This document shows, one piece after another, positions 40,871-62,386 of a stretch of DNA of 62,416 nt. The position numbers and the translations under genes are program-made. Within the stretch, counting starts at the first letter, position 1; every line of letters begins with the position of its first letter. Below the pieces are notes generated by a model that worked only from the letters and a program-made list of their open reading frames with translations, was not told the origin of the DNA and made no database searches. Source of the stretch: Patescibacteria group bacterium (lineage in GTDB: Bacteria > Patescibacteriota > Microgenomatia > JAMCYU01); the NCBI GenBank assembly GCA_023473585.1, contig JAMCYU010000008.1, forward strand, positions 1-62,416, given 5' to 3'.

Positions 40871-41747
40871 TGAGGTTTTTTGTTGATTCCACCCTGTCCC
40901 AAATAGTGTGCTTATTTTTTTGAAAATGATAATCATAAGTCCCGAGGATTCTGGCCATCATTTCCAATAAAGCCACGGCTGGCGACCAGATTAAATATTT
41001 AAAATCAGGCTTTAAAACTTTTACCCAAGCAAGAAGAGTTTTTCTTAAACCTAAAGTAGAAACTTGATAACCTTGAATTTTTTTTAAAGCTAAATGGCCG
41101 CTATAGATTCTTCTTCTTTGCTTCATAAATTCGAATAAATTCTCTGTCCCTTTATTTAAAACAATCGCGTCGGGAACGTATTTAAGAGTGTACCCTTGAC
41201 CAACAATTAAAGGTTCAACCGTGGCTTCGTCAACGGCCGAAGCGTAAGGAATTCTTTCAAAGATTTTCCGGTAAGCCACCATCTCCCCCATTTTTGGGGA
41301 CATTAAAGCCACTTGGTGATGAAGCTCCCATAAAAGGTGGGCGGCAAAACCAAAGAAATGATCTTGAGGGTCTGAAGGAATCGGCCGGGCTCCGGTCATC
41401 CCGATTCTTGGATTGGAAAATGGCCTTGCCAATTTTTCAATTACATCCTCCTGTGGAATCGTGTCCGCCCCGGCGCAAACCACAATTTTCCCTTTGGCAT
41501 GTTTTAGAAATAAATTAACGGCCGAAGATTTCCCCAAACGTTCTTTTTGAATCAAGAGTTTGATTCTTTTGTCGGTTTTGGCCAGGCGTTTAACAATGGG
41601 AATTGTCTTGTCAGTGCAACCAGAAGCCACGACAAATATTTCCTTAATCTGGGCTTTATTAAGTTCTTGTGACAGTATGGCCTCAAGGCAACGGGCAATG
41701 TTTTGTTCCTCGTTGTAAGCCATCACGCCGATACTTGCTTCAATCAT
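40860..41747 (-). CDS. Family 2 glycosyltransferase (soluble, ~295 aa)
   Basis: IGVMAYNEEQNI and CAGADTIP. The start MIEASIG makes an ATGA overlap with the upstream stop. Confidence 0.85.
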   Translation of the reverse strand: MIEASIGVMAYNEEQNIARCLEAILSQELNKAQIKEIFVVASGCTDKTIPIVKRLAKTDKRIKLLIQKERLGKSSAVNLFLKHAKGKIVVCAGADTIPQEDVIEKLARPFSNPRIGMTGARPIPSDPQDHFFGFAAHLLWELHHQVALMSPKMGEMVAYRKIFERIPYASAVDEATVEPLIVGQGYTLKYVPDAIVLNKGTENLFEFMKQRRRIYSGHLALKKIQGYQVSTLGLRKTLLAWVKVLKPDFKYLIWSPAVALLEMMARILGTYDYHFQKNKHTIWDRVESTKNLNVV

Positions 41748-44494: not shown

Positions 44495-44502
44495 TTTAGT
44501 TT

Positions 44503-47247: not shown

Positions 47248-49321
47248 CTTCGTCTTTATCCTCCTCCCATTTAGCTTTGGCTTGTTTAAAAAGCCCGTTT
47301 AAACGCTTCGTTAAAAAGGGGTAAGCGATAAAACCAATAACCGTCATGATCGTTAACAAATATCCCAACCAAATATCCCCAGTTTTATGCCAAGTCAGGG
47401 TAATTTCCATGTTTCCCGTTGCCTTTGGTTCCAGTAACATAAAACCTAACGGGTCTTTTTTGATCGCAATCTTTTCCTGACCGGAAAAAGCCTGCCAGCC
47501 GCTACTGTAAGGAATCTGCAAAGCAACCCCTTCTTCTTTATCTAAGTTGGCCGTAATTTTGGCTTGACCATTTTTAAACCAAGTAAAATTAGCCTCCGGC
47601 AATTTGTTGTTATCGATATAAATTAAATAATCTTGTAAGGCTGAATAATCAACGGCGTTTTTTAATGGTTTTAGGTTAACAAAATTCGTTTTGCTGACAA
47701 CTTGAGCGAGTGACGGCTGAACCAAGGGTACTTTATAAATCACATCCCCTTTCAAGTCAATTATTTTCGTTAAATCAGGGTTTTCGGTGAACCTTTCGAT
47801 TTTTTTAAAATCATGGAAAACCTCCGAAGACTGAGGAGTATTCACCACCAAATAGGAAACATTCAAAATTCTCAGCCAAGAGAGGGCGATTTCCGCTTCT
47901 TTTCCTAAAGGCGCGTTTTCTCCGGTGTTAATTTGATAAATCGCGTGGAGAACCCAAGGATTGGCCAAACCGTCATTGCCACCTCTGACCTGAGGGACGT
48001 CGAAAAAAGTATTCAGCCAAAAAGCGGTCGAACCGGAAGCATAAACCCTTTCTCCGTCAGTGTTATTTTTAAGCCAAGAGGCAATTTTATACTCCGAGGT
48101 TTGCTCAATTGCCTGGTGAGGTTGCGTTAAATTCCAAACTTGGTTAATATATCTTAATGGCAAATAGAGTATCAAAATAGTAATTAGTGTATATAAAATT
48201 CCTTTTGCCCAGACCAATTTCGGGATGATTTTTTCAATTAAAAGAAAAATTCCCCAAGAAAGAAAAAGAGCCATCCCCATGTCCATTTCCGGAAGATAGC
48301 GATTTGGTTGAGGTAAAAGCATGACTTCCTTGGTGAACCAAAAATAAGCGGAGGAGAAAAACAAAACAACCCAAGTCACGGTTATCAACGGTAGTTTCCA
48401 ATTTTCTTTTTTAGCCGCAAGGGCGAAAAGAAAAACTAAAGGAATCAATAAAAAAATAAACGGTAAAAAACGAAAATACACCTCGCCTAAACTGCCACCC
48501 GCTCCCCCGGTCCCAATCGAGAGGCTGGCTTTCATAAAAGAAAGGTTATACCAAAAACTGACTAAACCAAAACTGTAAAAAACAAGAAGGAAAGATCTTC
48601 CCGCTTTTTTCTGCCAATCCTGACCAATATCTTCAATGATAAAAACGGTCATCAGCATCATCGTCAGTCCCATTAAAGAGATCATGTTCGTTAGAGCGAC
48701 AAAAGCGATAAAAATACTGGCCATTAAATAATTTCGCAAATTACCCTGCCGAAGGGTTTTAAAAGTAAAAAGAATCGCCAAGGGCAGAAAGAATAAACCA
48801 ATAATGTGCCCGCCTTCCCCATATAGAATCATGGTTAAAAAACGCCATGGGGCAAAATTGTGAGCTTCAGCCGTTCCGGAAAGTCCCGGCATTAAATATC
48901 CGACGGTGGGCGCGAAGGCAAAAATCATGGCCGATAAAAAACCGGCGGCCGTATTCTTGAGAAGATAGCGAACCAGAAAATACACGCTAATCGGCGTCGC
49001 CGCGTAAAAAAAGCCGATCAAAATCCGATACCATGATTCAAGAGGAATTGAACTAAAACAGGCGTGGAGCAAAACCATTAAGTATGGCAAAAAGGGCGTA
49101 TAAAATAAATGAAACGGGAAACCCGTATACCAATAAGGATTCCAGGACAAATTGGGAAAATTTTCCGCGATAAAGCGGGCGTCGGCAATAAAAACACTTT
49201 CAATTGACCCCATTTGGCTGGTATAACCGCCGCTAAAAAGCGGCCAAATCAGCATCGCGTTAACCGTAAAGAGAAAGAGCGGAATAACCATCAAGGAAAA
49301 TAATAATTTGATTATTCTCAT
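47240..49321 (-). CDS. GT-C/YfhO-like paralog (693 aa)
   Basis: Same architecture: VPQVRGGNDG and the tail KWEEDKDEDE. Confidence 0.55.
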   Translation of the reverse strand: MRIIKLLFSLMVIPLFLFTVNAMLIWPLFSGGYTSQMGSIESVFIADARFIAENFPNLSWNPYWYTGFPFHLFYTPFLPYLMVLLHACFSSIPLESWYRILIGFFYAATPISVYFLVRYLLKNTAAGFLSAMIFAFAPTVGYLMPGLSGTAEAHNFAPWRFLTMILYGEGGHIIGLFFLPLAILFTFKTLRQGNLRNYLMASIFIAFVALTNMISLMGLTMMLMTVFIIEDIGQDWQKKAGRSFLLVFYSFGLVSFWYNLSFMKASLSIGTGGAGGSLGEVYFRFLPFIFLLIPLVFLFALAAKKENWKLPLITVTWVVLFFSSAYFWFTKEVMLLPQPNRYLPEMDMGMALFLSWGIFLLIEKIIPKLVWAKGILYTLITILILYLPLRYINQVWNLTQPHQAIEQTSEYKIASWLKNNTDGERVYASGSTAFWLNTFFDVPQVRGGNDGLANPWVLHAIYQINTGENAPLGKEAEIALSWLRILNVSYLVVNTPQSSEVFHDFKKIERFTENPDLTKIIDLKGDVIYKVPLVQPSLAQVVSKTNFVNLKPLKNAVDYSALQDYLIYIDNNKLPEANFTWFKNGQAKITANLDKEEGVALQIPYSSGWQAFSGQEKIAIKKDPLGFMLLEPKATGNMEITLTWHKTGDIWLGYLLTIMTVIGFIAYPFLTKRLNGLFKQAKAKWEEDKDEDE

Positions 49322-50724
49322 ATTGATTGAATGGTTAAAAAGGCTTTAATTTTCCGATTTAAATCGGATAGACCTCTTATTTGTCCCAGTTGCCTCAAAA
49401 GAAATTTTGGCTGGCGATAAAATTCCCGATACGCTTTTTTTTCGTACGCTTGAACTGTTTGCGCGTTCAAACCTTCAGGTACATAATAAAGATGGTTAGG
49501 CAGATTTACTAGAAGTCTATCATAAGCAACGTTTTTTAAAAAACTGCGTTTCTTGGCCTCCTGCCAAAGTTTTGTTCCCGGGTAAGGCGTCGCGATCGTA
49601 AAATTAGCCACGGATAAGGGCAGGCTTTTAGCAAAATCAATTGTCTCCTGCATGGTCTTTTCCGTTTCCCCGGGCAAACCTAAAATAAAAAATCCCAAAG
49701 CCTGAATTCCAACCCTGGTTGTTTCCCCAACCGCCTCCTCTACCATTTTTTTGGTGATGCCTTTATTTAAACTTTTCAAGATTTCCTCATTTCCCGATTC
49801 AATGCCGTAGGAAATCTGCCAGCAGCCGGCTTTTTTCATCAAACGAAACATTTCCCCATCCGCTTTATTCACCCGTCCCAAACAAGTCCAAGTAAATTTC
49901 AACTTTTTTTTAAAAATTAAACGACAGATTTCTTTAACCCGATCCGTATCCGCGTTAAAGGTATCGTCCCAAAGACGAATTTCCTTGGCGCCATATTTGT
50001 TAATCAGAATTTCCATTTCCGAAACGACACTTTCAGGGCTTCGGAAGCGCCATTTATTACCAAAAACGCCTCGGAAACAAAAATTGCATTGGTATGGACA
50101 ACCGCGGCTGGTAATCATTGTCCCCACCGGAAAATTTTGATAGGTTGCCGGAGTCGGATGATAGGCTGATAAAGAAGGCATTAAGTGCCTGGCCGGAAAA
50201 GCAATTTGGTCAAGATTCTCAATGTATGCTCTTGGGACGGTTTTGATAACTTTTTTTCCTTTTCGGAAAACAATTCCGGCGACCTTGCTAAGATTGCCCT
50301 TATTAGTTAAAACCTGAATAAGCTCGACAATCGTCTGTTCACCTTCACCAATGACCCCAACATCAAAACAAGAAAATTTGGCGACCTCCTTTGGCATTGC
50401 GGTCACATGAGGCCCGCCGATAATAACGAACGCTTTCTGAGATTTTTTTAATGCCCTTGCTAGTCTGACAGCCTTATTAAAATCAACCGTTGAAGCAGAA
50501 AGACCGATAAAGTCCGGCAACAACCTTTGCGCCTCGGCAACAACCTCTTTAATCCCCCAACCCAGCGGTGGAGCGTCAATAATTTTAATCTCAAAGCCCG
50601 CTTTCTCCAAAACCGCGCCAAGATAACCAATACCAAGTGGCGGCTGCATGTTTCCCACCTCTGCCAGAGAACTGAATTCTTCTTTTAAACTGTAGGGAGG
50701 GAAAATGAGTAAAACTTTAGTCAT
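49318..50724 (-). CDS. B12-binding (class B) radical SAM enzyme, second copy
   Basis: VLLIFPPY..PPLGIGYLGAVL and SRGCPYQCNFC. Confidence 0.85.
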   Translation of the reverse strand: MTKVLLIFPPYSLKEEFSSLAEVGNMQPPLGIGYLGAVLEKAGFEIKIIDAPPLGWGIKEVVAEAQRLLPDFIGLSASTVDFNKAVRLARALKKSQKAFVIIGGPHVTAMPKEVAKFSCFDVGVIGEGEQTIVELIQVLTNKGNLSKVAGIVFRKGKKVIKTVPRAYIENLDQIAFPARHLMPSLSAYHPTPATYQNFPVGTMITSRGCPYQCNFCFRGVFGNKWRFRSPESVVSEMEILINKYGAKEIRLWDDTFNADTDRVKEICRLIFKKKLKFTWTCLGRVNKADGEMFRLMKKAGCWQISYGIESGNEEILKSLNKGITKKMVEEAVGETTRVGIQALGFFILGLPGETEKTMQETIDFAKSLPLSVANFTIATPYPGTKLWQEAKKRSFLKNVAYDRLLVNLPNHLYYVPEGLNAQTVQAYEKKAYREFYRQPKFLLRQLGQIRGLSDLNRKIKAFLTIQSI

Positions 50725-51403
50725 TTTCGACGACGAAAAAGAAATTCATCCCAAAACAACCTCTTTTAAGTCTTAAAATCTTACCTTGGTTGTTAAAAAG
50801 AGCTTGAACCTCCCTTTTTTTAAAAATTCGATGATAAGGCTCTCCCGGGTGGGTTGATGATAAAAACCGAAGATGCCAAATTGGATTTTGAGCTGGAACC
50901 GAGCCGATTAAAATCCCCTTTGGGGTTAAGACACGAAGGATTTCTGATAAAGCTTTTTGAGGATGAATAAGATGTTCTAGAACATCAGTGCAAATTACCG
51001 CCTTAAAAGCTTGGCCGGAAAAAGGCATTTTTTCGATATCTCCAAGGACTAACTTCGCCTGGGGAGCATGAGTTTTAGCCCGGCGAAGATTTCGAGGGTT
51101 AATGTCAAGACCAATTGAATCAGGAGGCAAATGGCGCAGAATTAAACCTGTACCACAACCAACATCAAGAAACTTACCTTCCTTTCCAAATTCTTTTACC
51201 AATTTTAAAGTCTCCCTTTCTCTTAGACAATGAAGAATCGTCTCCAGACCCCGAAATCGGTTAGCCACCTCAACCCAATCATAGTCTTCTAATTCTTGAT
51301 AATATCGCTTATTTTCTTTAACAAACTTTTCTGTCGAAATATCGACAGTAAGCCCGTTTTTTGCACAAAATTTCCAATTAACAAATCTCGCTTTTCTCTT
51401 CAT
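50717..51403 (-). CDS. Class I SAM-dependent methyltransferase (228 aa)
   Basis: LDVGCGTGL..GLDINP..GDIEKMPF. Confidence 0.8.
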   Translation of the reverse strand: MKRKARFVNWKFCAKNGLTVDISTEKFVKENKRYYQELEDYDWVEVANRFRGLETILHCLRERETLKLVKEFGKEGKFLDVGCGTGLILRHLPPDSIGLDINPRNLRRAKTHAPQAKLVLGDIEKMPFSGQAFKAVICTDVLEHLIHPQKALSEILRVLTPKGILIGSVPAQNPIWHLRFLSSTHPGEPYHRIFKKREVQALFNNQGKILRLKRGCFGMNFFFVVEND

Positions 51404-51457: not shown

Positions 51458-52723
51458 TCATCCATTTTCGCCTTTGGCGAATTTTTGGCTTAATTTTAAG
51501 GTGCTTAAAATTAAAACGGTTGCTGACGAAATAACTATCCCGATGATTTGAGAAAATCCCCCACCGTCTCGGACTAATTGTGCCCCCAAAACTTGGTTAG
51601 AACTCTCAAGACGGTTGGTAAATTGCGGCCGCACGAAAAATACCGAAATAACCAAAAAAGATAAAAGAAAACTGATCCAGCCGTAAAAAATAGGACTCAC
51701 TCTCTCCTTTTTTTCTTTTGGGAATTTTGGAATAAACGGAAGAAGGCGTAAAAAGACACCGGGATTAGTTTTTAAAACCTCGGCAATAATGACCAAAACA
51801 ACGGCGAGAAAAAAAGAAAAGCTGAAATAAAACTCCGGCAGGAAACGATTCGGAACCGGTAAATAAGTCGTACTAATACTGGGCGCCACATAAATAAGCG
51901 TAAAAAACACTAAAAAATGACTCAAGCTTAAAAAAATGGCTTGTAAACTGGGCTTTCGGTCAAAAATCAAAAAAGAAAGGGCACCCAAAACCGGGACCAA
52001 AAAGAACGACGGCGGGATGAGATTCAATAGAAGTTTAACGAGTGCTTCTCCGTGCTCGGCTTGAAAAATTTTGTAAACAAAGCTCGGGTGATACCAAAAA
52101 CTGGAAAGGCCGGCCGCGGCGATCAGAATCATTAAGGTCGACAGCATTTTAAACCGGCCCAAACCTAAAAGCATCTCCGAGTAGGTCAGTAAGCCCAAAA
52201 AGATTAATAAGGTAAAAAGACCGAAAGGACTGGTTAAGGCGACCAAAGCGACTCCAACCGCCGAAACCAAAAGCAAACCAATGGTGGGATTGCGTAAAAA
52301 ACGCAGATTGAAAATTAAAACGATGGGCAAAATCGTTAAGGAAACCAGATGCGCACTGTCGCCAACGGCAACCGTATCATAAAATCTGGAGGCTGACAAA
52401 GTGTAAATTAAGCCTGCTAAAAGACTGATTAAGCGTCTATTGGTAATTTCCCAAACATAAAAATATAAAGAAACCGGTCCAAAAATATAGGCGCCGAAAA
52501 TTAAAAACTTTAAAATTTCTTCTCTGCCTCCGGCAAGAAAAGGCAAAAGAGGCGCCGTGAATTTGCTAAAGGGCAAGGTCTTGTCCATGAGTGGCCAAAT
52601 CAAAAAAAGATTGAGGATTAAAACAAGAAGGGGCAAAACCAAGGTATGCAAATTTAAACTGATGCGGGGAGCGGCTGGGGTTGACAATTTTGCATGATTA
52701 CTTAAGCGTCTAAAAAACCGCAT
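51458..52723 (-). CDS. Polytopic membrane protein resembling the TM half of the GT-C-like paralogs (421 aa)
   Basis: More than 10 TM helices and no ectodomain. Confidence 0.6.
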   Translation of the reverse strand: MRFFRRLSNHAKLSTPAAPRISLNLHTLVLPLLVLILNLFLIWPLMDKTLPFSKFTAPLLPFLAGGREEILKFLIFGAYIFGPVSLYFYVWEITNRRLISLLAGLIYTLSASRFYDTVAVGDSAHLVSLTILPIVLIFNLRFLRNPTIGLLLVSAVGVALVALTSPFGLFTLLIFLGLLTYSEMLLGLGRFKMLSTLMILIAAAGLSSFWYHPSFVYKIFQAEHGEALVKLLLNLIPPSFFLVPVLGALSFLIFDRKPSLQAIFLSLSHFLVFFTLIYVAPSISTTYLPVPNRFLPEFYFSFSFFLAVVLVIIAEVLKTNPGVFLRLLPFIPKFPKEKKERVSPIFYGWISFLLSFLVISVFFVRPQFTNRLESSNQVLGAQLVRDGGGFSQIIGIVISSATVLILSTLKLSQKFAKGENG

Positions 52724-53064: not shown

Positions 53065-53685
53065 TTAACCTATTTCTTTCTTTGACAAGAAGGTTTTTCT
53101 CTTCCCCATTGATATTTTACCTCCCTCATCATTTTTCTCTTCCAACACATAAGAGTAACTAAACCACCAAAAGAAAAACAACCACAAGATTAAAATAATA
53201 ACCGAGGAATAATCATGGATGACCGTCGCCGGAACCCCTCTTACATAAACGATCAAAATCGCTACTAAACTGATTCTTAAAATATTAACAAGGATTGTTC
53301 CTAAAATTCCTATCATGGCACATTCGATTTTTGAAACCTTCGTATAGGCTCCCTGTAAACCAGTTGCTAGGGTTAGCAATAAAACTAACATTGATTGCCA
53401 ACCTAAACAATTCCAGGAAATGATGATTTTTTCCCAGACGCCGTTTTTTAAAATACTGATACTGGTCGCCGAAGCGCTTGCCTGCTGTCCCATCGCCCCA
53501 AGAAAAACGACAATCATCCGTGTTTCCAGGGGTAAAATAAAACTTTCAATCAGCCGATACCAACCCATCTTTAAGAAAATCGAGGTTAAAAGTTCGTTAA
53601 AAGTTGTTAGGAAAGGTAAAAGCAATAAGAAAATCGCCAAGAGACTAAAAATCGTTAGAAATGTTGCCTTAGGATTCCCCTTCAC
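53065..53685 (-). CDS. Exosortase/archaeosortase-family protein (short form, 206 aa)
   Basis: Polytopic. The candidate catalytic Cys/Arg/His contexts are WNCLGWQS, VNILRISL and VIHDYS, in the order expected for the family. Confidence 0.6.
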   Translation of the reverse strand: MKGNPKATFLTIFSLLAIFLLLLPFLTTFNELLTSIFLKMGWYRLIESFILPLETRMIVVFLGAMGQQASASATSISILKNGVWEKIIISWNCLGWQSMLVLLLTLATGLQGAYTKVSKIECAMIGILGTILVNILRISLVAILIVYVRGVPATVIHDYSSVIILILWLFFFWWFSYSYVLEEKNDEGGKISMGKRKTFLSKKEIG

Positions 53686-56208
53686 CTAATTACCTCCGAT
53701 TTGTTGATTTAACCATTGATTGGTCTTATCAATTTGGTATGCCAAACGGTATTCCTCAAGCGCCCTTAACGTCTCACCCCTGGTAAAATACATCTTCCCC
53801 AGGGTTACATGTTGACGGAAAAGAAAATATTTATTATCCGTCTTTGGTCTTAAGTCTTTCATGGCTTCGATATTTTTGCTCGTGGTCGCCTGATAAAGAC
53901 TTTTTGGGGCGGAAAACTCTAAAAAAGGGTGGTTGTCGGTATTTTCTTTGGCTCCCTGAATAAACTTAACTATGCCTTCTTGACCCAACGCTAAATAGCT
54001 TAAAAACTGTTCGGCACTTTCAATGAAAATCCGCCCAAATTCATTTTTGATAAGTTTCTGCTCTAATTTCTGGCTGATTAAATCAGCATCTAAATTTATC
54101 GGTTCCTGACTGCCCAAGAGCAGCAAATCGTAAGAAGAAAGATTGTCCCAAACAGTAGTATAGGGAAAAACCGATTGAAAAGTCTTAATCTCCGTTTTTA
54201 AATCGTCTGTTTTAAGACTGTAAAGTTGAATCCAGTGGGCAAAAATGCCACCCTTATTAAGACGTTTTTTCGCCAACTCAAAATACTCTTTGGTGAAAAG
54301 TTTAGAATTTCCCGACAGCCAAATATTCGAAGGTTCGGAAGTAATCACATCGTATTTTTCCGTTCCTTTCAAAAGATAATTTCTACCGTCCCCTGTCACC
54401 ACTTTTAGTCTTTGGTCTTCTATGGCCCGATGGTTTACCTCACTGAAATATTTATTGGCTTCAATAATGGCTGGTTCAATTTCCACCGCCTCGATATTTT
54501 TGGCCGGAAATTGTTCAACAGAACCTAGGGTTATCCCTGATCCTAACCCAACCACCAAGACATCTTCTGGATTAGGATGTAAGATCATCGGTAATGCTCC
54601 TGAGAGAACCTGTGTGTCAATATCCAAACCGGTTGAAGCATCGGTTTTCCCGTCAATGCGCAAAAAAACCTGCGCCCCGAGTTTTTTAACGGCCACTGTT
54701 ACCTCAATCCCTTCCCGATAATAAAGAAAGTCGGAGCCCTGCATTCTTTTTTCGGCTTGCTCTTGGCTGTCTTGGATGAAAAAACGCCAATTGGCATATG
54801 GCCCGGAAACTAAAAAATGTTTGTTCCATAATGGCCATAAATAACCAATCAAAAGAATGACTAAGATAACAAAAGAGATCAAAATTCTCGGAAAACTTCG
54901 CTTGTCTTTGACAATAAGCCAAACTGCCAAAAAAAGATAAATCGCTGCCATCAGCCAAATTCCCTTCTGGACGCCGATTCGAGGAATCAGGAAAAAACCG
55001 GCTAATAAGGAACCAAAGACGCCTCCTAGGGTATTAGCCGCGTAAAGACTGCCGACTGACCAACCGACTAATTTTTCTTCTTCCTGATAGAATTTAATAC
55101 CCAAGGGCAAAAGCAAACCCATAACCAAAGTCGCCAGAAACATAAGAAAAAAGGAAAGGATAAATTGCCAAAAAAGAATCGACCCAAAAGAAGTGTAGCT
55201 GGTTTTGATTATTTCCAAAAGGAAAAAGGGTATCTTTTCAAAAAGAGGGATGCTAAAGATTATCCATGTGCCTAAAATCGCTAAAAAAACGGCCAGCCAA
55301 ATTTGGCTAAATTTCTTTCCCCATTGGCGAAAAATAAGACTCCCGATGGCAATCCCTAATAAGAAACTGACTAAAACCGTCGCAAAAGCATATATCGAAG
55401 CACCGAAAAATAAAATTAAAGTTCTCGTCCAAAAAACCTCCATGGCCAAACCTGCCAAACCAGTCAGGAAAAAAACTCCCAAAAGAAAATAATTTGTGTG
55501 AAGACTATCAGGGACTATGTTCGGCCGCTTGCCAGCGATTTTTCTGTCTTCACTTGATACTTGATACTTACTACATAATACTAATATCGTGATACCGATA
55601 ATTAAATTTATACCCGCGGCCAGCCAGATGGTTTCACGAACGCCCAAAAAAGCAATCAGAAAAAACCCGGCTAAAAAAGCCCCCATGACGGCGCCCAAAG
55701 TATTGATAAAATATAAAAAACTTACCCCCTCCCCTATTTCCTGATCTTTAAGAAGAAATTTCGCGATCACCGGCAAAGTTCCACCCATCAGGATTGTTGG
55801 TAAAATCAAAGCCAAAAAACTTAAAAGAAATGTCAAAAATTGAAAACCATAAAAAGATGAACCGATATTTTGGCCAACAAGAACCTGCAATCTTTCGACG
55901 AATTTAAAAATTAAAGGAGTTAAAAAAGCATATAAACCTATTCCTAATTCTAGAAATGCGTAAAGTTTTAGGGAATTCTCTTTTTGATCGATAATTCGGC
56001 CAAAAAAAAAGCTGCCCAAGGCTAAACCGCAAAAAAAGATAGCCAAAACAGAAGCGGTTGCGTAAGCAGTTGTCCCGAAAACCAAAGCCAGCTGCCTTTG
56101 CCAAACAACCTGATAGGTTAGGGCGCAAAAACCGGAAAGGAAAAAGAAGAGAACCAAAAGTCTTCGTAAGTTAATCATCGTAATTATAAACTTATAACAA
56201 CTTGCCAT
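53686..56208 (-). CDS. Fused polytopic membrane / spermidine-synthase-like / TPR protein (840 aa)
   Basis: ~14 TM helices, then VLVVGLGSGITLG and DVITSEPSN (aminopropyltransferase/MTase fold), then TPR-like repeats. An alternative start at M11 (56178) would remove the overlap. Confidence 0.75.
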   Translation of the reverse strand: MASCYKFIITMINLRRLLVLFFFLSGFCALTYQVVWQRQLALVFGTTAYATASVLAIFFCGLALGSFFFGRIIDQKENSLKLYAFLELGIGLYAFLTPLIFKFVERLQVLVGQNIGSSFYGFQFLTFLLSFLALILPTILMGGTLPVIAKFLLKDQEIGEGVSFLYFINTLGAVMGAFLAGFFLIAFLGVRETIWLAAGINLIIGITILVLCSKYQVSSEDRKIAGKRPNIVPDSLHTNYFLLGVFFLTGLAGLAMEVFWTRTLILFFGASIYAFATVLVSFLLGIAIGSLIFRQWGKKFSQIWLAVFLAILGTWIIFSIPLFEKIPFFLLEIIKTSYTSFGSILFWQFILSFFLMFLATLVMGLLLPLGIKFYQEEEKLVGWSVGSLYAANTLGGVFGSLLAGFFLIPRIGVQKGIWLMAAIYLFLAVWLIVKDKRSFPRILISFVILVILLIGYLWPLWNKHFLVSGPYANWRFFIQDSQEQAEKRMQGSDFLYYREGIEVTVAVKKLGAQVFLRIDGKTDASTGLDIDTQVLSGALPMILHPNPEDVLVVGLGSGITLGSVEQFPAKNIEAVEIEPAIIEANKYFSEVNHRAIEDQRLKVVTGDGRNYLLKGTEKYDVITSEPSNIWLSGNSKLFTKEYFELAKKRLNKGGIFAHWIQLYSLKTDDLKTEIKTFQSVFPYTTVWDNLSSYDLLLLGSQEPINLDADLISQKLEQKLIKNEFGRIFIESAEQFLSYLALGQEGIVKFIQGAKENTDNHPFLEFSAPKSLYQATTSKNIEAMKDLRPKTDNKYFLFRQHVTLGKMYFTRGETLRALEEYRLAYQIDKTNQWLNQQIGGN

Positions 56209-59200
56209 TTATTTTAATGACTGCCAAATGAATTTGCAATCGCCTTTTTTGCCACCACTCGATCACCTTAGGCAAGAAGATCGCCATCGGTATAAAAAGC
56301 AGGGCTTTTTCCGGCGCTGCCGGAGCAGTAACTTCGTAAGTTATAAAAGCAGTAAGTCCGCCAAGTTTATCCACATTAACCGGGAGATCAATATTCATGT
56401 AATATGCCCTTATATTTCCACTAAGACCTGTTCCTGACGAAGCTGCTAGATTTGATGCATCCTGAAAAGTGGAAACGCTAAGGTTCTCTCCCGTTGTCTG
56501 ATTTAGAGGACCATACCCAACAGTATCGGCCACTTGTACAAAAGCATACGTCGCACTCGTATAGAAAATTTCGAAATTTCCTTCAGCTCCTGATGAACGC
56601 TTTGTCGTCGAAGATTCGGGAATATAAGTATTAAATGTAAAACTTGGATCAGAAGTGCTTTTTGCCGTTTCTTGCCCAACAAACCAATTCACCGTTTTTA
56701 TACCCGTATATGTACCGCTTGTAGGAATTACGAAGTTATAAGAAACAATTAGTTCCGCTCCTACCGCATAAGTCTCATTAATTTTATCTCCTAAAGCTTC
56801 AACCGTCACCGTGTCCCCGGTTTGCCAATTAGTACTAAAGTTACTGGAAATATCAATAAAAATCACATTTCTCCCTGCTTGTTGGGTGACTACTGTTGCG
56901 TAATAAGTACTCGCCGAAGGATATTCGACTGCTGTGCCACCGGTTATTGTTACTCGGTAACGCGTGTTAGCCGCAGCTGTGTTTGTCCCCACAATTTTTA
57001 AATAAGCATTGTAATTGGAGAGTGAGCTTTCGGGTAAATAAACCGCTGGTGCGCCGATTTGAGTATAAGTTATAGGTAAAGCTCCGCTTAGCTGACCAAC
57101 ATGATATTTAGCCGTATTGCGATGAGTTGTACTTGTTTGGTTGTAATAACTATAAGTATAGGTAATAAGCAGTTCTCCCCCCTTAAGGTTCATTACCTGC
57201 GCGTTATTATAAGAAATGATGGTGTTAGAGGCTTTGTAGTTTAATTGACCAAGAGCAGCTCCATCGGCCACAACTCCTACCGGTTCGTACATGGCGACAA
57301 AATCCATTGTTGTTTTGTTGGCTCCGTCTATAAAAGTAAAAACTGCCGAAGCGCCTCCAACCGGCAATATTTTTGGATTTGTAATTGGCTGATTGTTATT
57401 TATTTCTCCTCTAATTTGAGCGTCTGTTGTACCAGCGGAAACTTGACCAACATACTCCACCCAGGCCTTTTGGATAGTGATATTGGCCTCTTGCAGATTG
57501 GGATTAAGTGTACTTGTCAAAGTATCAGTCGAACCCGAACTAGATTGACTATTCTTGGTTTGTAAGGCGTATCTGACGGTTTTTACTTGCGTTGTTACCG
57601 TATCATCATATTCGTAAGTCACGATTAATTTAGCAGAATCAGTATTGTGAGTTTGGTTAACATAGGCGTTAAAATTATAAGTATTATTTCCTTGAGCGAC
57701 CTCGCTGGTTACATCCATACGAATAATAAAAGGTTGACTTTCACCAGAGTTTGTATTTATAGTGGTAAGTGATTGAGTTATGAAACTGTTAGTTCCCCGA
57801 CGGAACTTCATCTCACCGGCCGTTACATTATTAGCCGAAAGAATAAACCGCCATTCAACATAAGCATGACAGGGATTCGTCCCGGTAGTTCCGGTTAAGC
57901 AATCAACCATTGTTTCTGGAATATCTAAAGAAAATTGCGGCCCATTGGAAGAACTATAAGTTCCGGCATCAATCCCTTGAGTAGCCGTAATATCCGTTGC
58001 GCTGGCATATTGATAAATTGGCATTTCAATGGTCTTAATTTGGGTCCCCGGGGAAGCAAGGGCAAGAGGAACTTTGAAAGATAGCCAAGAAAGGTTCATG
58101 GATAAAATCAAAAGTACAGCTAGGGTAGTTTTTGCCAGCCACCTGATTTTCCTGCGCCTGATGGTAAAATGACCAAACCGGTTATTGGCTGTTTTTAAGG
58201 CCAAATAGGGATTGGAGCTGGAAATTAGATATGGTAATTGGGAATTAGTTTTTAATTCTTGAGTGCTTAATGCTTCATGCTCCATGCTTAATGAAGGTTT
58301 AAATCCCGGCAATATCCCTGAAATCCATCGGTAGAATCTCCCTCGTTGTAGGACATCGGTAATCATGCCTGTCTTGGGGGTTCTAAACCAAGGCCCTTCT
58401 TCTTTTTCGATAAAGCCCTTAACCGAGGCGTAGGCCTGAAAAGGAACGAGAAGATAAGAAAGTACCACAAATGAGAGTATCCCTAAATAGTCTTTCTCCT
58501 CACTCTCCTCCAGGAAAAGACCCACGGTATTGACTAGGGGTAAGGAGAACATGTTGGTTAAAACCAGAGACCAACCCCAAAGAGCCGTCCAGAAAGGGAG
58601 CCTGGCTTTAAAGATGGCTTCAGAGACAAACCAGCAAAAGGTCCCCAAAAGAAAAAAGGTGGCCTGGAGATAATAGGGAGACATAAAGAGAAACTCAAGT
58701 TTCTCCATGTAGGTAAGGTTGGAAGAACCTAAGAGTTTACCAAACATTTTCCTAACGTTAAAGGAATGACCCTCGGCCCAACGCATCCGCTGGCGGACTA
58801 ACCTCTTGATCGTCGAGACACATTCGGCCGGACCTTGAATGTAAGGAGTGTAGATGACCTTGTAACCCTGTTCGTAAAGACGCAGGGTTAGTTGGAAGTC
58901 TTCGGTAATTGAGGTTAACCAGCCGAGCTTTTTTAAGACATCCATCCTGATCATATAGACAGAGCCGGCGATCTGCTTTAAACCCCCGTAGACCTCGGCC
59001 CCTGACCTCTCAACGACATAAGATCCCGCGTACTCGCTTCTTACCCCCCTCGTAATCCAGTTCTCTGATTTGTTAAGAACGTGCCACTGGTAACCCTGGA
59101 TGGCCGCAACGGGTGAGTTTTGGTTCCTCCCTTGGTGACTAAATTCCTGATTCCTAATATCAAAGTTAAGTGTTCCGCAGACCGCTTGGAAGTACTTTAA

Positions 59201-60583
59201 GAATTGGGTGATGGTGTCAGGATAAGGCACAAAGTCGGAGTCAAAAACCAAGACAAACTCGGTTCTTGGGTCGGTAATCTTCATCGCCTCTTTAAGGGCC
59301 CCTCCCTTGTAGCCTTCCCTTGATTCCCGGTGAATAAGTTTGACTTTGGGATGATTCTTCCAGTCCGCAAGAATACTGGTGGTTTCATCATTGGAATCAT
59401 CAATAACGATAACCTCGTAGTTTTGGTAATCCATACTGGTGCAGGCCGAGAGAAGTCTGTTAACGACCTTCTTCTCGTTATACATGGGTAAATGAATGGA
59501 AACAAAGGGAGATCTTTGGAGAATCACTCCTTCTAGGTTGGGTTGTAATCCACCAACATATCCTTTCCGCAGACCAGAAGCACTATCTAAACCAACAAAC
59601 CTAAAAAGAAATCTCATCAACCACGACCGCTTCCTCGTTCCTGATTCCTGATTCTCTCCTTCTTGTCCGATATGACGAGAGAACCCTAAGACTATCGCCA
59701 AGGTTAAATAGTATTTAAGCGAGTAAAGGAAGAAAACCGAACCGGAAAATAAAGCGATTGAAGCAAAGATTAAGCCCAACTTATTCTCTTGAGGAACCTG
59801 ACTATAGATCCTCAACCAAGCTAAAAGAAGATAACTTATAGGGGCGGAAAAACCGAAGCCAAAGAAGAAGGACTTAAATATATTTTTAAAATTTGGCGGT
59901 GGTGCTGGTGCCAAAGAAGGCATAAAGGCTTCAAAAACCGTTCTGATTCTATTAATATTGGCGGTCGCAAGTTGAACAAGGGAGTTTGAGGTATGGGTTT
60001 TAGCGTAAGCAAGGCGCTGACAATAATAAGACAGGTTAAATCTTCTCAAGATGTTTTGCACGCCATGATTGCCCAAAATTGGCTTACCATTTATTTGAGG
60101 TAAACAAGCAACGATTTTATGCGTTGAAAGCTCTGGATATTTAATGACTAGTGTCAAAATTGTCTTTTCAACTAGCCGGGGAGTTTGATGATAATATTTT
60201 TCTCTTTTGGGAATTTTATCCCAGAGAGCTCCCGTTTTTTCTCCAAGCGGAGCCTGCTCATAACGATTTTTCCAACGATAAAAGATCGTACGGGAGATAC
60301 CGTATTCTTGACAAATTTCGGCCACGGGTTTACCAGTAAGTTTTTTTTCGATCGTCGCTAGCCGCTCTTTTGGAGAAAGCAGTTTTCTGGGGATTTTCGC
60401 ATTGTGAAAAAGCGGTTTAAGTGAACTAATTTTAAGGTTATTTTCTTTATATCTTTTTAACCATCGGTAAAAAAGAACGCGGGAGATTCCGGCTTCCCGA
60501 GCAAGCCTAGTAGCTTCTTCATTTTTATTTAAGAAGCGCTTAATAAGACTTAATCTTTGTTTTACAGTCAGTTTAGCTCTCAT
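56192..60583 (-). CDS. Fusion protein: two transposase-type HTH domains, a processive GT2 (QxxRW), a ~640-aa Thr/Ser/Asn-rich ectodomain and a C-terminal TM anchor (1463 aa)
   Basis: One continuous ORF. HTH motifs: GISRVLFYRWLKRY and GISRTIFYRWKNRY. GT2 motifs: LPMYNEKKV, VIDDSND, FDSDFVP and RQRMRWAEG. The C-terminus is APAAPEKALLFIPMAIFLPKVIEWWQKRR. Confidence 0.8.
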   Translation of the reverse strand: MRAKLTVKQRLSLIKRFLNKNEEATRLAREAGISRVLFYRWLKRYKENNLKISSLKPLFHNAKIPRKLLSPKERLATIEKKLTGKPVAEICQEYGISRTIFYRWKNRYEQAPLGEKTGALWDKIPKREKYYHQTPRLVEKTILTLVIKYPELSTHKIVACLPQINGKPILGNHGVQNILRRFNLSYYCQRLAYAKTHTSNSLVQLATANINRIRTVFEAFMPSLAPAPPPNFKNIFKSFFFGFGFSAPISYLLLAWLRIYSQVPQENKLGLIFASIALFSGSVFFLYSLKYYLTLAIVLGFSRHIGQEGENQESGTRKRSWLMRFLFRFVGLDSASGLRKGYVGGLQPNLEGVILQRSPFVSIHLPMYNEKKVVNRLLSACTSMDYQNYEVIVIDDSNDETTSILADWKNHPKVKLIHRESREGYKGGALKEAMKITDPRTEFVLVFDSDFVPYPDTITQFLKYFQAVCGTLNFDIRNQEFSHQGRNQNSPVAAIQGYQWHVLNKSENWITRGVRSEYAGSYVVERSGAEVYGGLKQIAGSVYMIRMDVLKKLGWLTSITEDFQLTLRLYEQGYKVIYTPYIQGPAECVSTIKRLVRQRMRWAEGHSFNVRKMFGKLLGSSNLTYMEKLEFLFMSPYYLQATFFLLGTFCWFVSEAIFKARLPFWTALWGWSLVLTNMFSLPLVNTVGLFLEESEEKDYLGILSFVVLSYLLVPFQAYASVKGFIEKEEGPWFRTPKTGMITDVLQRGRFYRWISGILPGFKPSLSMEHEALSTQELKTNSQLPYLISSSNPYLALKTANNRFGHFTIRRRKIRWLAKTTLAVLLILSMNLSWLSFKVPLALASPGTQIKTIEMPIYQYASATDITATQGIDAGTYSSSNGPQFSLDIPETMVDCLTGTTGTNPCHAYVEWRFILSANNVTAGEMKFRRGTNSFITQSLTTINTNSGESQPFIIRMDVTSEVAQGNNTYNFNAYVNQTHNTDSAKLIVTYEYDDTVTTQVKTVRYALQTKNSQSSSGSTDTLTSTLNPNLQEANITIQKAWVEYVGQVSAGTTDAQIRGEINNNQPITNPKILPVGGASAVFTFIDGANKTTMDFVAMYEPVGVVADGAALGQLNYKASNTIISYNNAQVMNLKGGELLITYTYSYYNQTSTTHRNTAKYHVGQLSGALPITYTQIGAPAVYLPESSLSNYNAYLKIVGTNTAAANTRYRVTITGGTAVEYPSASTYYATVVTQQAGRNVIFIDISSNFSTNWQTGDTVTVEALGDKINETYAVGAELIVSYNFVIPTSGTYTGIKTVNWFVGQETAKSTSDPSFTFNTYIPESSTTKRSSGAEGNFEIFYTSATYAFVQVADTVGYGPLNQTTGENLSVSTFQDASNLAASSGTGLSGNIRAYYMNIDLPVNVDKLGGLTAFITYEVTAPAAPEKALLFIPMAIFLPKVIEWWQKRRLQIHLAVIKINGKLL

Positions 60584-61002
60584 CTTTTCGTGTTAACACC
60601 ATTATTAATAATTAGCCTCATATTTATGTTAACATTAAGTGGGTACTGTTTGTCAAGCCCTATGGGTTATGAAGTAACAAGCAAAACCAAGATATCCAAG
60701 GCTAACTTCTTCCCCAAATAATCCACATTTTTACCCACAGATAGCCTTAATTTTTGTCCTTTTATTTTATAGGCTATTATTAATATCTAACTATAGGACT
60801 TAATTGTGGAAACTATAAGCTATTCTGATTCTCAAACTATAGGAGATTAACCTGCAAGGCTCTTCGGCTACTAAAAACTTGGGATTTTCTTTTTGGAAAC
60901 CTTCTTAAGATGAGAATTAATAAGACCAGATTAAATCATTTGCTTTTTATTCGGCGCTTCAAGAATACCCCGCCTCTGGTGGGGATGAATTGAAGCAAAG
61001 AA

Positions 61003-61028
61003 AATATTCTCCCTTAAGGGAGAATATT
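61003..61028. other. Perfect 11-bp hairpin in the long AT-rich intergenic region
   Basis: AATATTCTCCC-ttaa-GGGAGAATATT. Confidence 0.4.
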
Positions 61029-61396
61029 ATAGGATATATCTTTCCGTTAAATATAATTCAGAACGCTCCGATAATAAGAATTATTTTTTGCGCTTTCAAA
61101 AAAATATTTATACCCAGAGATGAAAATGATGAAGTTTATATTTAATTAAAAAAGATTATTTAATAATTTCGCTAATAAGGCTAGTTAGAACTTCGTTACC
61201 TAACAATTTTTTGTATTAAAAGTAATTAAATGCTTGGTCTTTTCTTTATTAATGAACAAAAAAGTTCATCAATAATTATTGGCGATAAAAATAATAACAA
61301 AAATATGTCTTTCTTGTTTAACTTAAAAAACTATTAAGCAGGAAATTTTTATTTTACGAAGGATAGAGCAACTTTAAAAGAGGCAGATTAAAAATA

Positions 61397-62386
61397 TTAC
61401 TCTAGGACTCTATAAATCCGATCACCGGCAACGTCATAAATTTTTTCTAAAGAGGAAATTTTGTCAAAAATTTCCGGATGGACAAAATCATGATAATACT
61501 CCCGCGAGTTTTCGGTATGAACGACTAAATAGTTGATCTTTAATTTTCGCAGCCATTGTGAGATCTTTGATGGGTTCTGACCCTGGCGAATCTTCCAGGC
61601 CGCTTTTCGCCAGTTTTGGTCTACGACCACCTGATCCTGTCCCCCTCTTACCTGGTTAATATCAAAAAACGCATTTAGCCAAAAAACCGTTGTCCCCGAA
61701 AGAAAGGCTCTTTCGTTTGGCCCAACGATCCTGGTCAGTTCCTCCCCTATTTGGTATTCCACGGTTTTTTTAATATCTTTCTGCATGGTCTTTAAAACAA
61801 AAGTGTTAAAAATAAAAAGGAAAATGAAAAAATAAATAGCCAAAAAAGCGACGGAAAAGGTATTTTTGAAGAAACGCCGAAGCAGAAGACTAAGACCAAG
61901 ACTTATTCCCAACTGTAACTCCATTGTGTAGGCTGTCCAGTCCAACCAAAAATCAATATCAGACAAGAATCTAGTCAAAGTTAAAAAACCAAAAACGAAA
62001 AGCCAGTAAAAAAGAAAGTCCCGGGGTAAGTTTTTTTCTTTGAAAACCTTCACCGAAAAAATGGCCAAAATAAAGGCCAGAGTTGTCGGAAGGATCTGCA
62101 AAATCCAAAAGATAAGACCACTCAAACCTTTGCCAGCCCAAGAAGGCGTACCCAAAATAGCCAACCAGTAAATCGGTGTATACCACAGAGTGGCGATCAT
62201 GATTGAAAGGAAAAGCAGAAGAGAGGTTTTTTTAATTTTTTCCTTGATTCCCTGCCAGCCGGTTTTGGCCAAGAAAAGACAAACCATGCCGAAAATTAAA
62301 GAGGGTAAAATAAGAGTATCTATAAGTAAGACAAAAGATATCAAAATAATCAAAAAAACTCGAATTCTTTTCGTTTCTCTTTGCAA
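61397..62386 (-). CDS. Shorter paralog of the GT-C/YfhO-like family (329 aa listed; may extend past the window end)
   Basis: FWLNAFFDINQVRGGQDQ..INYLVVHTENSREYYHDF aligns with FWLNTFFDVPQVRGGNDG..VSYLVVNTPQSSEVFHDF in the 693-aa protein. Confidence 0.6.
   Translation of the reverse strand: MQRETKRIRVFLIILISFVLLIDTLILPSLIFGMVCLFLAKTGWQGIKEKIKKTSLLLFLSIMIATLWYTPIYWLAILGTPSWAGKGLSGLIFWILQILPTTLAFILAIFSVKVFKEKNLPRDFLFYWLFVFGFLTLTRFLSDIDFWLDWTAYTMELQLGISLGLSLLLRRFFKNTFSVAFLAIYFFIFLFIFNTFVLKTMQKDIKKTVEYQIGEELTRIVGPNERAFLSGTTVFWLNAFFDINQVRGGQDQVVVDQNWRKAAWKIRQGQNPSKISQWLRKLKINYLVVHTENSREYYHDFVHPEIFDKISSLEKIYDVAGDRIYRVLE

Follow-up and report, generated by a model that had tools for sequence, protein, structure and literature searches.

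What is a DNA-binding module of the transposase kind doing at the head of a membrane-bound polysaccharide synthase? This question is raised by a single gene on the Patescibacteria contig JAMCYU010000008.1 (assembly GCA_023473585.1), which was analysed over its whole stretch of 62,416 nucleotides (nt), referred to here as the window. The gene occupies positions 56192..60583 of the minus strand, stop codon included, and is a single unbroken open reading frame (ORF) of 1463 amino acids (aa) that reads, in order, as a helix-turn-helix (HTH) module, a family 2 glycosyltransferase (GT2) synthase, an internal signal-like helix, an ectodomain and a C-terminal sorting tail. A preliminary description of the locus had given the same uninterrupted 1463-codon frame and the same coordinates, which stand, with the correction that the feature sits on the minus strand. 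Our overall reading, to which we give somewhat better than even credence when the mechanism proposed below is counted in, is that the ORF is intact and belongs to a large family of surface-coat modules, each self-contained, that is specific to Patescibacteria.

The fused gene belongs to a large family in Patescibacteria

A search for homologs brought up 393 proteins, of which the 120 best all scored above 796 bits, were 812-2293 aa long and in nearly every case carried the HTH and GT2 Pfam domains jointly. The homolog P0002 showed 54% identity across 99% of the length, and the same order of modules was present in more than 80 full-length homologs. The hosts were Patescibacteria, chiefly Microgenomates (Woese-, Davies-, Gottesman-, Curtiss- and Chisholmbacteria). 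The preliminary description had proposed a search for the same architecture in other genomes, and in species-representative genomes it was found at 271 confirmed loci, frequently in multiple copies per genome and even per contig. In addition, an exhaustive phmmer run that compared residues 1-360 with 1.84 billion representatives yielded 174 clusters (50% identity) at E <= 1e-30 and 330 clusters at E <= 1e-10. An alignment of 118 homologs defined a conserved core from residue 1 to about residue 840, beyond which (from about residue 850) the sequences could not be aligned. Database labels for the family were 'glycosyltransferase' and 'hypothetical protein' and, at JGI, 'cellulose synthase/PNAG synthase-like glycosyltransferase/transposase', and NCBIfam held no curated model covering the synthase, its tail or the exosortase subfamily described below.

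The N-terminal module resembles the DNA-binding part of IS481 transposases

Residues 1-200 (59984..60583, minus strand) make up the predicted cytoplasmic DNA-binding module, as judged from Pfam, the NCBIfam model of IS481 transposases, AlphaFold2 and analogues in the PDB. The module is laid out as HTH1 (residues 7-52), HTH2 (residues 71-119) and a third helical or winged module (residues 136-200). The Pfam families HTH_28, HTH_23, HTH_29 and HTH_Tnp_1 each matched two stretches (about residues 3-48 and 70-111), all above gathering scores, and positions 2-109 of the 284 of the IS481 transposase model NF033577 aligned to residues 74-190 with an E-value of 6.6e-19. Positions 110-284 of that model were unmatched, no rve/DDE domain was detected in the Pfam and NCBIfam scans, and the whole-protein score was 68.5 against a cut-off of 224. 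Pfam and NCBIfam thus bore out the two HTH units and third helical module without a DDE domain that had been described beforehand, and the N-terminus, for which a comparison with HTH models had been called for, matched several of them above gathering scores. Residues 1-235 carry a net charge of +30 and, modelled separately with AlphaFold2, gave a predicted local distance difference test (pLDDT) score of 86.2. In a fold search with residues 1-235 the best matches were all DNA-bound bipartite HTH domains, namely the paired domains of Pax5 and Pax6 (probability 1.0, target-normalised TM-score 0.57-0.64), the DNA-binding domain of the Tc3 transposase (probability 0.99, TM-score 0.64) and also IstA, Mos1 and Mu/TnsB, while a sequence search of the PDB with the HTH returned noise only.

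The module is a constant feature of the family. All 118 close homologs have at least 120 residues ahead of the first transmembrane helix; 74 of them carry two complete HTH_28+HTH_32-like units, and in 44, the protein of the window among them, the second half of the first unit is lost. Some homologs begin at the second HTH unit. Conservation of at least 90% was found for S97, R98, R107, Y108, L143, V146, P150, G174, L179, R181 and L184, and R190 was invariant. The earlier suggestion of a domesticated transposase-type DNA-binding module tethered to a polymer synthase gains support from this constancy and from the confidence of the structural model.

In a distant branch of the synthase family (L064, 6891-9602; L072, 9341-14236) the same position holds an HTH of the MerR/HTH_17 type (MerR scored 28.4 and 31.8 bits, where the gathering cut-off is 28.2; HTH_17 scored 32.2, where it is 27), which precedes a transmembrane helix and replaces the IS481-type module. 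An exosortase gene adjoins both synthases; L072 keeps the P-E tail described below, and L064 ends at the contig end. A search for the frequency of the MerR-type fusion returned just two short fragments, so that the variant is documented in two metagenome-assembled genomes (L064/L068 and L072/L073). Two unrelated DNA-binding folds at one place speak for an HTH function being wanted and selected for there, and against a dead relic of an insertion sequence (IS).

The likeness to IS481 and IS3 transposases lies in the combination of HTH_28/HTH_23 with an HTH_32-like module and in the matched part of the IS481 model, and the structure resembles the DNA-binding domains of Pax, Tc3, IstA and Mos1. 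In contrast to those transposases, the synthase lacks a DDE/rve domain, has its HTH unit duplicated and fused to a membrane enzyme, and is encoded by a stable chromosomal family gene, not by a mobile element.

The core is related to processive membrane synthases

The transmembrane part begins with a pair of helices (residues 239-302; 59678..59869, minus strand) recognised by hydrophobicity, alignment and model and bearing the invariant family motif FFLYSxKYY. It is followed by the GT2 catalytic domain (residues 355-620; 58724..59521, minus strand), defined by Pfam, NCBIfam, invariant columns and Foldseek, with the motifs DD(S), DxD, TED and QRMRW and an insert reading GYQWHVLN. The GT2 region as a whole spans residues 355-700, over which the Pfam GT2 families scored above their cut-offs. 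Alignment and model then place transmembrane and interface helices at residues 625-725, followed by the gating-loop-like motif WFRTPKTG (residues 732-739), the two together at 58367..58711 on the minus strand. Hydrophobic helices were located at residues 239-301, 639-725 and 816-838 and at the C-terminus (1427-1444, followed by QKRR). In the 118 homologs D395/D396, D448xD450, T560-E561-D562, Q598RMRW602 and the whole of WFRTPKTG were invariant, so that the GT2 with D,D,D and QRMRW between transmembrane helices, as first described, is confirmed.

The best NCBIfam match was PgaC/IcaA (E 7e-25), followed by cellulose synthase. All scores fell far below the equivalog cut-offs (PgaC_IcaA, 87.8 bits against 422.3; CelA, 57.8 against 699.1; NodC, 31 against 550), and the protein is therefore not an ortholog of any named synthase. 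An AlphaFold2 model of residues 1-840 had a mean pLDDT of 75.9, with values of about 90 in the HTH modules and the GT2/transmembrane core. With Foldseek it matched best the E. coli and Rhodobacter BcsA (E down to 1e-16), and chitin synthase and the hyaluronan synthases of Chlorella virus and Xenopus were also matched, the latter two with target-normalised TM-scores of 0.55-0.57. As modelled, the core is a BcsA/hyaluronan-synthase-like processive membrane GT2 in which the catalytic domain lies between transmembrane helices and is followed by a gating loop; in our reading WFRTPK corresponds to FxVTxK, the motif of the gating loop in BcsA. With the BcsA, PgaC/IcaA, hyaluronan and chitin/NodC synthases it shares the GT-A domain with D, DxD, TED and QxxRW, the helices on either side of that domain and the gating-loop-like WFRTPK. 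It differs from them in its N-terminus, where those enzymes have no such domain or, in BcsA, PilZ, and where this one has the HTH module; in the family-specific GYQWHVLN insert; and in the addition of a variable C-terminal ectodomain of 300-2500 aa with a sorting signal.

Between the gating loop and the export helix lies a cytoplasmic motif, NPYLALxTANNxFxxFxI (residues 786-815; nt 58139-58228, minus strand), in which conservation is at least 90% at Y793, A799 and N801 and complete at F803, and for which the model has low confidence. The HTH or the export machinery might make contact here.

A synthase-specific promoter element accompanies the HTH module

The 300 nt upstream of 22 synthase genes were compared by unbiased 7-mer enrichment with 879 GC-matched windows. 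GTACCCA was present in 10 of the 22 upstream regions and in 23 of the 879 windows (p 5e-10), GTTAACA in 12/22 and 44/879, and CTTGACA in 13/22 and 60/879 (p between 4e-10 and 6e-10 for the three). Upstream alignment and motif scans resolved these words into a promoter/operator element of two classes. Class A reads TTGACA, N4-5, GT[AT]ACCCA, N5-6, TGTTAACAT, often with a second TGTWWACA just before the start codon, and the compact class B reads TTGACA, N2-3, GTACCCATGAAAGGTAACAAT. The element of the window belongs to class A and extends over 60588..60656 on the minus strand, with a -35 box TTGACA at 60651-60656, the spacer box GTACCCA at 60640-60646, an extended -10-like TGTTAACAT at 60626-60634 and a second TGTTAACA box at 60591-60598, 7 nt ahead of the ATG; no TGTTAACA site other than these two occurs in the 62 kb. 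The region 60584-61396, which the preliminary description had chosen for binding assays, was thus the right one, and its informative part is just 60588-60656.

The element is closely tied to this gene family. A relaxed pattern of the -35 and spacer boxes gave 39 matches in 1.12 Mb, and 31 of them lay within 700 nt of a synthase 5' end, as compared with about 6% expected. In a scan of metagenome contigs for the exact motif, 7/7 matches stood just upstream of an ORF that opens with the family HTH module, and the element was found in 0/6 family members that lack the IS-type HTH, the MerR-type branch (L064/L072) being devoid of it. Its form also followed the architecture of the protein: the extra downstream box occurred with the short HTH form in 11 of 14 cases, and its absence with the long form in 16 of 20 (Fisher p 0.0013, kinship ignored). 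That a promoter spacer contains a conserved box implies that some conserved factor acts on it in trans, and the simplest candidate for that factor is the gene's own HTH, which is equally conserved. Autoregulation by a membrane-tethered one-component regulator, as put forward in the preliminary description, thereby receives circumstantial backing from a gene-specific promoter element that co-occurs with the HTH type.

Such an arrangement would have parallels in the tethered regulators ToxR and CadC and in the trigger enzyme PutA, in which a cytoplasmic DNA-binding domain is likewise joined to a membrane protein or enzyme; a link of this kind could make a promoter responsive to the state of the membrane component. 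Those proteins use an OmpR-type winged helix or a ribbon-helix-helix, whereas the synthase has a transposase-type bipartite HTH, and in contrast to the single-pass membrane part of ToxR and CadC its own is polytopic, with no evident sensing domain. A further likeness, in this case to IS481/IS3 transposases, is that an element resembling a binding site lies across the promoter of the gene itself. Self-repression is common among IS transposases, which act on their promoter within the left inverted repeat, and the repeats of IS481 start with TGT. Around the synthase gene no terminal inverted repeats came to light, none having been looked for downstream of its 4.4 kb, and upstream of it stand the palindromic TGTTAACA boxes. 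By analogy, the element might be the fossil of an inverted-repeat promoter once repressed by the transposase.

Some of these data weigh against autoregulation. The Foldseek E-values of the HTH model were weak (0.09-0.4), though the kind of match was consistent, the co-variation and presence/absence tests rest on small numbers uncorrected for phylogeny, and the boxes overlap the core promoter (-35/-10), so that a sigma factor or a separate regulator could read them. The best surviving alternative, which we consider unlikely although it deserves serious attention, is that another conserved regulator or a specialised sigma factor reads the boxes and that the HTH does not regulate its own gene; it could then anchor the synthase to the nucleoid or DNA, act allosterically as the PilZ domain of BcsA does, or oligomerise. 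Besides the overlap with the -35/-10 region, the recognition-helix motif GISRxxFYxWxKRY fits this alternative, being nearly the same in all paralogs and so saying little on specificity; the motif is also common in real transposases. The high net charge would suit non-specific nucleic-acid binding as well, and residues 740-812, with the conserved N801, F803 and F806 and low model confidence, leave room for cytoplasmic regulatory contacts. However, the element goes specifically with genes for this type of HTH, it co-varies with the architecture of the HTH, and no candidate gene for a separate regulator is conserved beside the cassette, and we therefore prefer the gene's own HTH as the factor that would bind the boxes.

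Several other upstream features were noted. At 60768-60844 (minus strand, 185-260 nt upstream of the ATG) lies a 31-nt direct repeat, 81% identical and with a spacing of 46 nt, that holds four CCTATAGTT/CTTATAGTT/CCTATAAAA boxes at intervals of 22-24 nt; the window contains CTATAGTT 5 times, where 1.2 occurrences are expected. The repeat with its four CCTATAGTT-type boxes was considered as an operator and dropped, as it is not conserved upstream of homologs, and a repeat scan did no better than shuffled sequences; the proximal element from the 7-mer enrichment was preferred. Likewise, the TGTTTAC...GTAAACA pairs of L004 and L013 were considered as a compensatory hairpin change and rejected, being variants of the pseudo-palindrome TGTWWACA. 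Further upstream, at 61003-61028 (minus strand), a perfect 13+13-nt palindrome (AATATTCTCCCTT/AAGGGAGAATATT) with a run rich in T after it probably terminates the upstream gene, in which case the synthase promoter (60651-60656) would start a transcription unit of its own. In L005, L016, L075, L076 and L077 an apparent CTG start or a conserved CTGCC(C/A) at the start (e.g., AAGGAGGGCAGGCTGCCACCC, read (M)LPPKLS) suggests a non-ATG start or a conserved leader element.

The ectodomain is framed by a signal-like helix and a probable sorting tail

The conserved core ends in an internal segment that looks like a signal peptide (residues 809-843; 58055..58159, minus strand), with a basic n-region RRRKIRW, a hydrophobic core and KVPL-A841-L-A843 followed by S844. 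In 117 of the 118 homologs there are at least three K/R residues just upstream of this pre-ectodomain helix, whose hydrophobic core measures about 17 residues. At the start of the hypervariable region stands the near-invariant V-P-x-[VA]-x-A (Ala in 50/53, Val/Ala in 48/53), and [VAI]-x-A was present in 101/118, mostly 21-22 residues from the start of the core, against a non-positional background of 34%. We take [VA]-x-A to be the (-3, -1) pattern of signal peptidase I, by which the chain is probably cleaved after A841-L-A843 and before S844, to judge from these residues. If this cut is used, the gene encodes a polyprotein consisting of an HTH-synthase and a free surface protein with signal peptide and sorting tag, and the freed ectodomain would be a normal exosortase substrate. 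Apparent natural splits of synthase and ectodomain into separate genes (L011, L046, L057, L065) were rejected, being frameshifts or masked runs of N.

The ectodomain itself (residues 844-1423; 56315..58054, minus strand) is rich in Thr (13%), Ala (9%), Ser (9%) and Asn (8%) and is classed as an orphan, having no Pfam match at E <= 1 and no PDB sequence match at E <= 1. It aligns only with those of P0002, P0004, P0011 and P0033, and across the family the ectodomains are mutually unalignable and 300-2500 aa long. The Thr/Ser/Asn-rich ectodomain of the preliminary description is thus real, with Ala to be added; its 'bounded by TM helices' is better read as a passenger preceded by a signal-like helix and followed by a sorting signal.

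That signal is the tripartite C-terminus (residues 1424-1463; 56195..56314, minus strand), which reads P1424-E-K, the helix ALLFIPMAIFLPKVIEWW, QKRR and 15 more residues. The pattern [IV]PE[NK], a helix with APFIP and a K/R cluster was present in 83/118 homologs, whatever ectodomain precedes it, with the consensus T-[VI]-P-E-N-x-[LIV]-L-[LF]-L-x-x-A-P-F-I-P-x-x-V-L-W-x-K-K-R-R, and most of the others appear truncated at the ends of contigs. Across related loci totalling about 1 Mb, 43 of 62 synthase ORFs with complete 3' ends bore the tail as compared with 9 of 529 other ORFs, and those nine were eight truncated or frameshifted synthase C-termini and one spurious ORF within a synthase gene. 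The synthase is the sole bearer of the tail in the window. The APEK-hydrophobic-KRR end had been correctly noticed, and it is better understood as a family-wide sorting signal resembling PEP-CTERM. In one sub-branch (P0005, P0029, P0038, P0042, P0046, P0050, P0060, P0069, P0074, P0097 and others) the tail is of a different subtype, P-E-I-P, helix and basic cluster, with about 33 cytoplasmic residues that end in a conserved ...LDELPV, which suggests an extra cytoplasmic interaction motif there.

A small exosortase-family protein is encoded in the same operon

Two genes downstream of the synthase in the operon, and overlooked by the preliminary description, lies a gene (53065..53685, minus strand) for a polytopic protein of 206 aa with several hydrophobic segments. 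This mini exosortase/archaeosortase-family protein was recognised by TIGR04178 (27.2 bits against a cut-off of 23), by its motifs and by synteny; 50/50 homologs matched TIGR04178, the best with an E-value of 1.1e-11. C93-L-G95, N134-I-L-R137 and H157 were invariant across the 50 sequences. The defining motifs of exosortases are Cys-x-Gly, Asn-x-x-Arg and His-x-x-x-Gly, as given for EpsH (PMC1569441). No named subfamily was reached by this protein (XrtG, 17 bits against 102.75; CrtC, 21.1 against 225) or by any of its 50 homologs, XrtG being the weak best subfamily match for 20 of them. At 36 of 53 evaluable loci an exosortase gene stood directly downstream of the synthase gene on the same strand, with a gap of -151 to +71 nt in 26 of the 36. 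In the 'dedicated' one-to-one sorting systems the enzyme and its single target are consecutive genes (Haft, bioRxiv 10.1101/2023.06.07.544157), and by the arrangement of its genes the pair of tail and exosortase fits such systems. Judged on these grounds, the 206-aa protein is the putative, and probable, sorting enzyme of the synthase tail.

In the window the two genes are separated by a fused major facilitator superfamily (MFS)/spermidine-synthase gene of 840 aa (53686..56208, minus strand; NCBIfam NF037959, 136.8 bits against a cut-off of 40), which overlaps the synthase stop by 17 nt, abuts the exosortase gene and appears to be translationally coupled to both. It brings an aminopropyl-transferase domain into a sorting operon. 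It was considered as a core component and rejected in favour of an accessory role, since the insertion was found at only 6/74 related loci (e.g., L001, L002, L039, L049).

The tail and its enzyme resemble the PEP-CTERM/exosortase systems (EpsH, XrtA; sorting domain TIGR02595) in the tripartite signal at the extreme C-terminus, with a motif at the outer face of the membrane, a hydrophobic helix and a basic cluster, in the variable passengers of little homology, in the several copies per genome, in the link to polysaccharide synthesis, and in an enzyme with Cys-x-Gly, Asn-x-x-Arg and an invariant His. They differ in that the motif is [IV]-P-E-[NK] where PEP-CTERM has P-E-P, and in that PEP-CTERM targets have an N-terminal signal peptide whereas here a polytopic synthase with an internal signal-like helix begins with a cytoplasmic HTH. 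PEP-CTERM was defined in bacteria with an outer membrane, in contrast to the present host, which belongs to the candidate phyla radiation (CPR); CPR bacteria are presumed to lack an outer membrane. Classical exosortases are also longer than the enzymes of about 190-206 aa found here, which form one-to-one operon pairs with their target. Among known gene sets the XrtG system of Firmicutes comes closest; it comprises a Firmicu-CTERM protein, XrtG and two GT2s (PMC12854382) and has in common with the cassette a small exosortase, GT2s, a C-terminally tagged target and a cell without outer membrane; the model of the XrtG-associated glycosyltransferase, TIGR03111, matched the synthase weakly. In the XrtG system, however, the target is separate from the glycosyltransferases, whereas here the two are fused in one polypeptide, and the present family has a different tail motif, the extra HTH module and a dedicated promoter.

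The sorting-signal reading must be set against the possibility that the C-terminal helix is a structural helix of the synthase. The residue after P-E is N, K, I, R or F and never Pro (0/83), so that the tail is no canonical PEP-CTERM, and the NCBIfam CTERM models gave no match to four tails at E <= 10. In the enzyme the Gly at +4 after H157 is missing, so that the third motif is only partly present, and in 17 of the 53 evaluable synthase copies there is no adjacent exosortase gene; ten of these keep the tail and would depend on an exosortase acting in trans. As the [VA]-x-A site is missing from the MerR-type branch, cleavage from the synthase cannot be universal. An alternative, which we hold to be decidedly improbable, is that the PE-helix-KRR end is a permanent membrane helix, either the last helix of a BcsA-type channel with the ectodomain as a loop or a plain anchor, and that the exosortase-like protein is otherwise employed. 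In BcsA the two last helices follow the gating loop, and in the model the pre-ectodomain and terminal helices would sit where these are; the conserved intramembrane prolines (APFIP) could be structural, and the tail's failure with every curated CTERM model and the ten tailed copies without a neighbouring exosortase gene point the same way. On the other hand, the tripartite design and extreme C-terminal position fit a sorting signal, the catalytic triad of the exosortase is invariant, the gene pair is tightly linked and often overlapping, and the Chlorella-virus hyaluronan synthase, a good structural match, works with fewer helices. We also know of no role of exosortase-family proteins beyond the processing of such signals. 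On balance we retain the tail as a sorting signal served by the 206-aa protein.

A possible mechanism for the cassette

On this reading the synthase would polymerise and extrude a beta-linked glycan, and the last helix of its core would export the ectodomain, which signal peptidase I probably frees after A843. The PE[NK] helix would hold the ectodomain in the membrane until it is cleaved by the exosortase, which, by analogy with sortase and archaeosortase, would cut by means of the triad Cys93/Arg137/His157 and transfer the newly formed C-terminus to an acceptor at the surface, be it a lipid or the glycan that the synthase itself produces. Meanwhile the membrane-tethered HTH may bind the GTACCCA/TGTTAACA boxes that overlap its own promoter and so exert feedback on the number of synthase/surface-protein units; boxes shared among paralogs would permit cross-control. 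It tells against this scheme that we infer its DNA-binding, proteolysis and transpeptidation steps from sequence. A bolder version, which we offer as a long shot, is that the cassette is a self-regulating unit for one coat variant, in which the polypeptide is cut in two, the exosortase joins the surface protein to the glycan of its own synthase, and the HTHs of paralogs cross-repress at a shared operator such that one or a few variants are expressed. If true, this would be an antigenic-variation-like switch in episymbiotic CPR bacteria, with an operator possibly descended from an ancestral IS481-type inverted repeat, and it would offer a direct view of what exosortases attach their substrates to.

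The least tenable explanation, that the fusion is an artefact or decaying remnant (a frameshift or misassembly joining an HTH gene or IS fragment to a GT2, or the dead N-terminal relic of an IS insertion), can claim the transposase type of the HTH and its lack of a DDE domain, but it is already effectively refuted, and its probability is negligible in our estimate, by the recurrence of the fusion in hundreds of independent Patescibacteria assemblies, the 271 species-representative loci included, by the retention of the module with its key residues in every close homolog, by its pLDDT of 86 and by the gene's own conserved promoter ahead of the HTH, so that the layout noted in the preliminary description is genuine.

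Each of the components is of a known kind, namely a processive GT2, an exosortase with a tripartite signal and a transposase-derived HTH; their combination, in which a sorting target is fused to a glycan synthase and provided with a dedicated mini-exosortase, a DNA-binding head and a matching promoter, appears undescribed. Within the library searched, no study was found to link exosortases with Patescibacteria, and for exosortase with candidate phyla radiation there was only an unrelated study of hot-spring viruses; a search combining HTH, glycosyltransferase, CPR and transposase returned a single, apparently unrelated paper. Exosortases have been tied to exopolysaccharide loci since 2006, and both the attachment target and the association with glycosyltransferases are unsettled; here a processive glycan synthase and the target form one chain, matched one-to-one by a minimal exosortase of about 200 aa, and this 'Rosetta stone' arrangement makes up a compact two-gene system. 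We found no previous account of a polysaccharide synthase that carries its own conserved DNA-binding domain together with a matching conserved promoter element. Should the HTH bind to this element, envelope assembly would be coupled to transcription in a new way, and transposase domestication in bacteria would have a clear example. The family is moreover abundant, multi-copy and hypervariable at its surface-exposed end in the CPR, whose surface biology and host attachment are little known.

Genomic surroundings of the cassette

The cassette is set in a large island of envelope and glycan genes, and the sequence elsewhere in the window is that of an ordinary CPR chromosome, with genes for topoisomerase I, DprA, MreB, PBP2 and two tRNAs. 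The cassette is flanked by two polytopic membrane proteins without a solid Pfam match (61397-62386 and 51458-52723, minus strand), the 421-aa one of which has a weak match to PTPS_related. Homologs of these flanking proteins recur beside synthase genes at 29/74 and 16/74 loci, and the 329-aa flanking ORF is probably cut by the end of the window, its homologs being about 470-600 aa long. On the 3' side of the cassette a large co-directional island (36543-51403, minus strand) encodes two B12-binding radical-SAM proteins, a SPASM radical-SAM protein, two methyltransferases, a HAD hydrolase, a small GT2 and a pair of proteins, each about 915 aa long, that have PTPS_related membrane domains, and is probably a cluster for glycan or envelope modification. 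Finally, a YcaO cyclodehydratase-family gene (16250-17599, minus strand; E 1.4e-47), which is unrelated to the synthase cassette, lies among small ORFs and could be part of a cluster for a ribosomally synthesised and post-translationally modified peptide or of the thioamide type.

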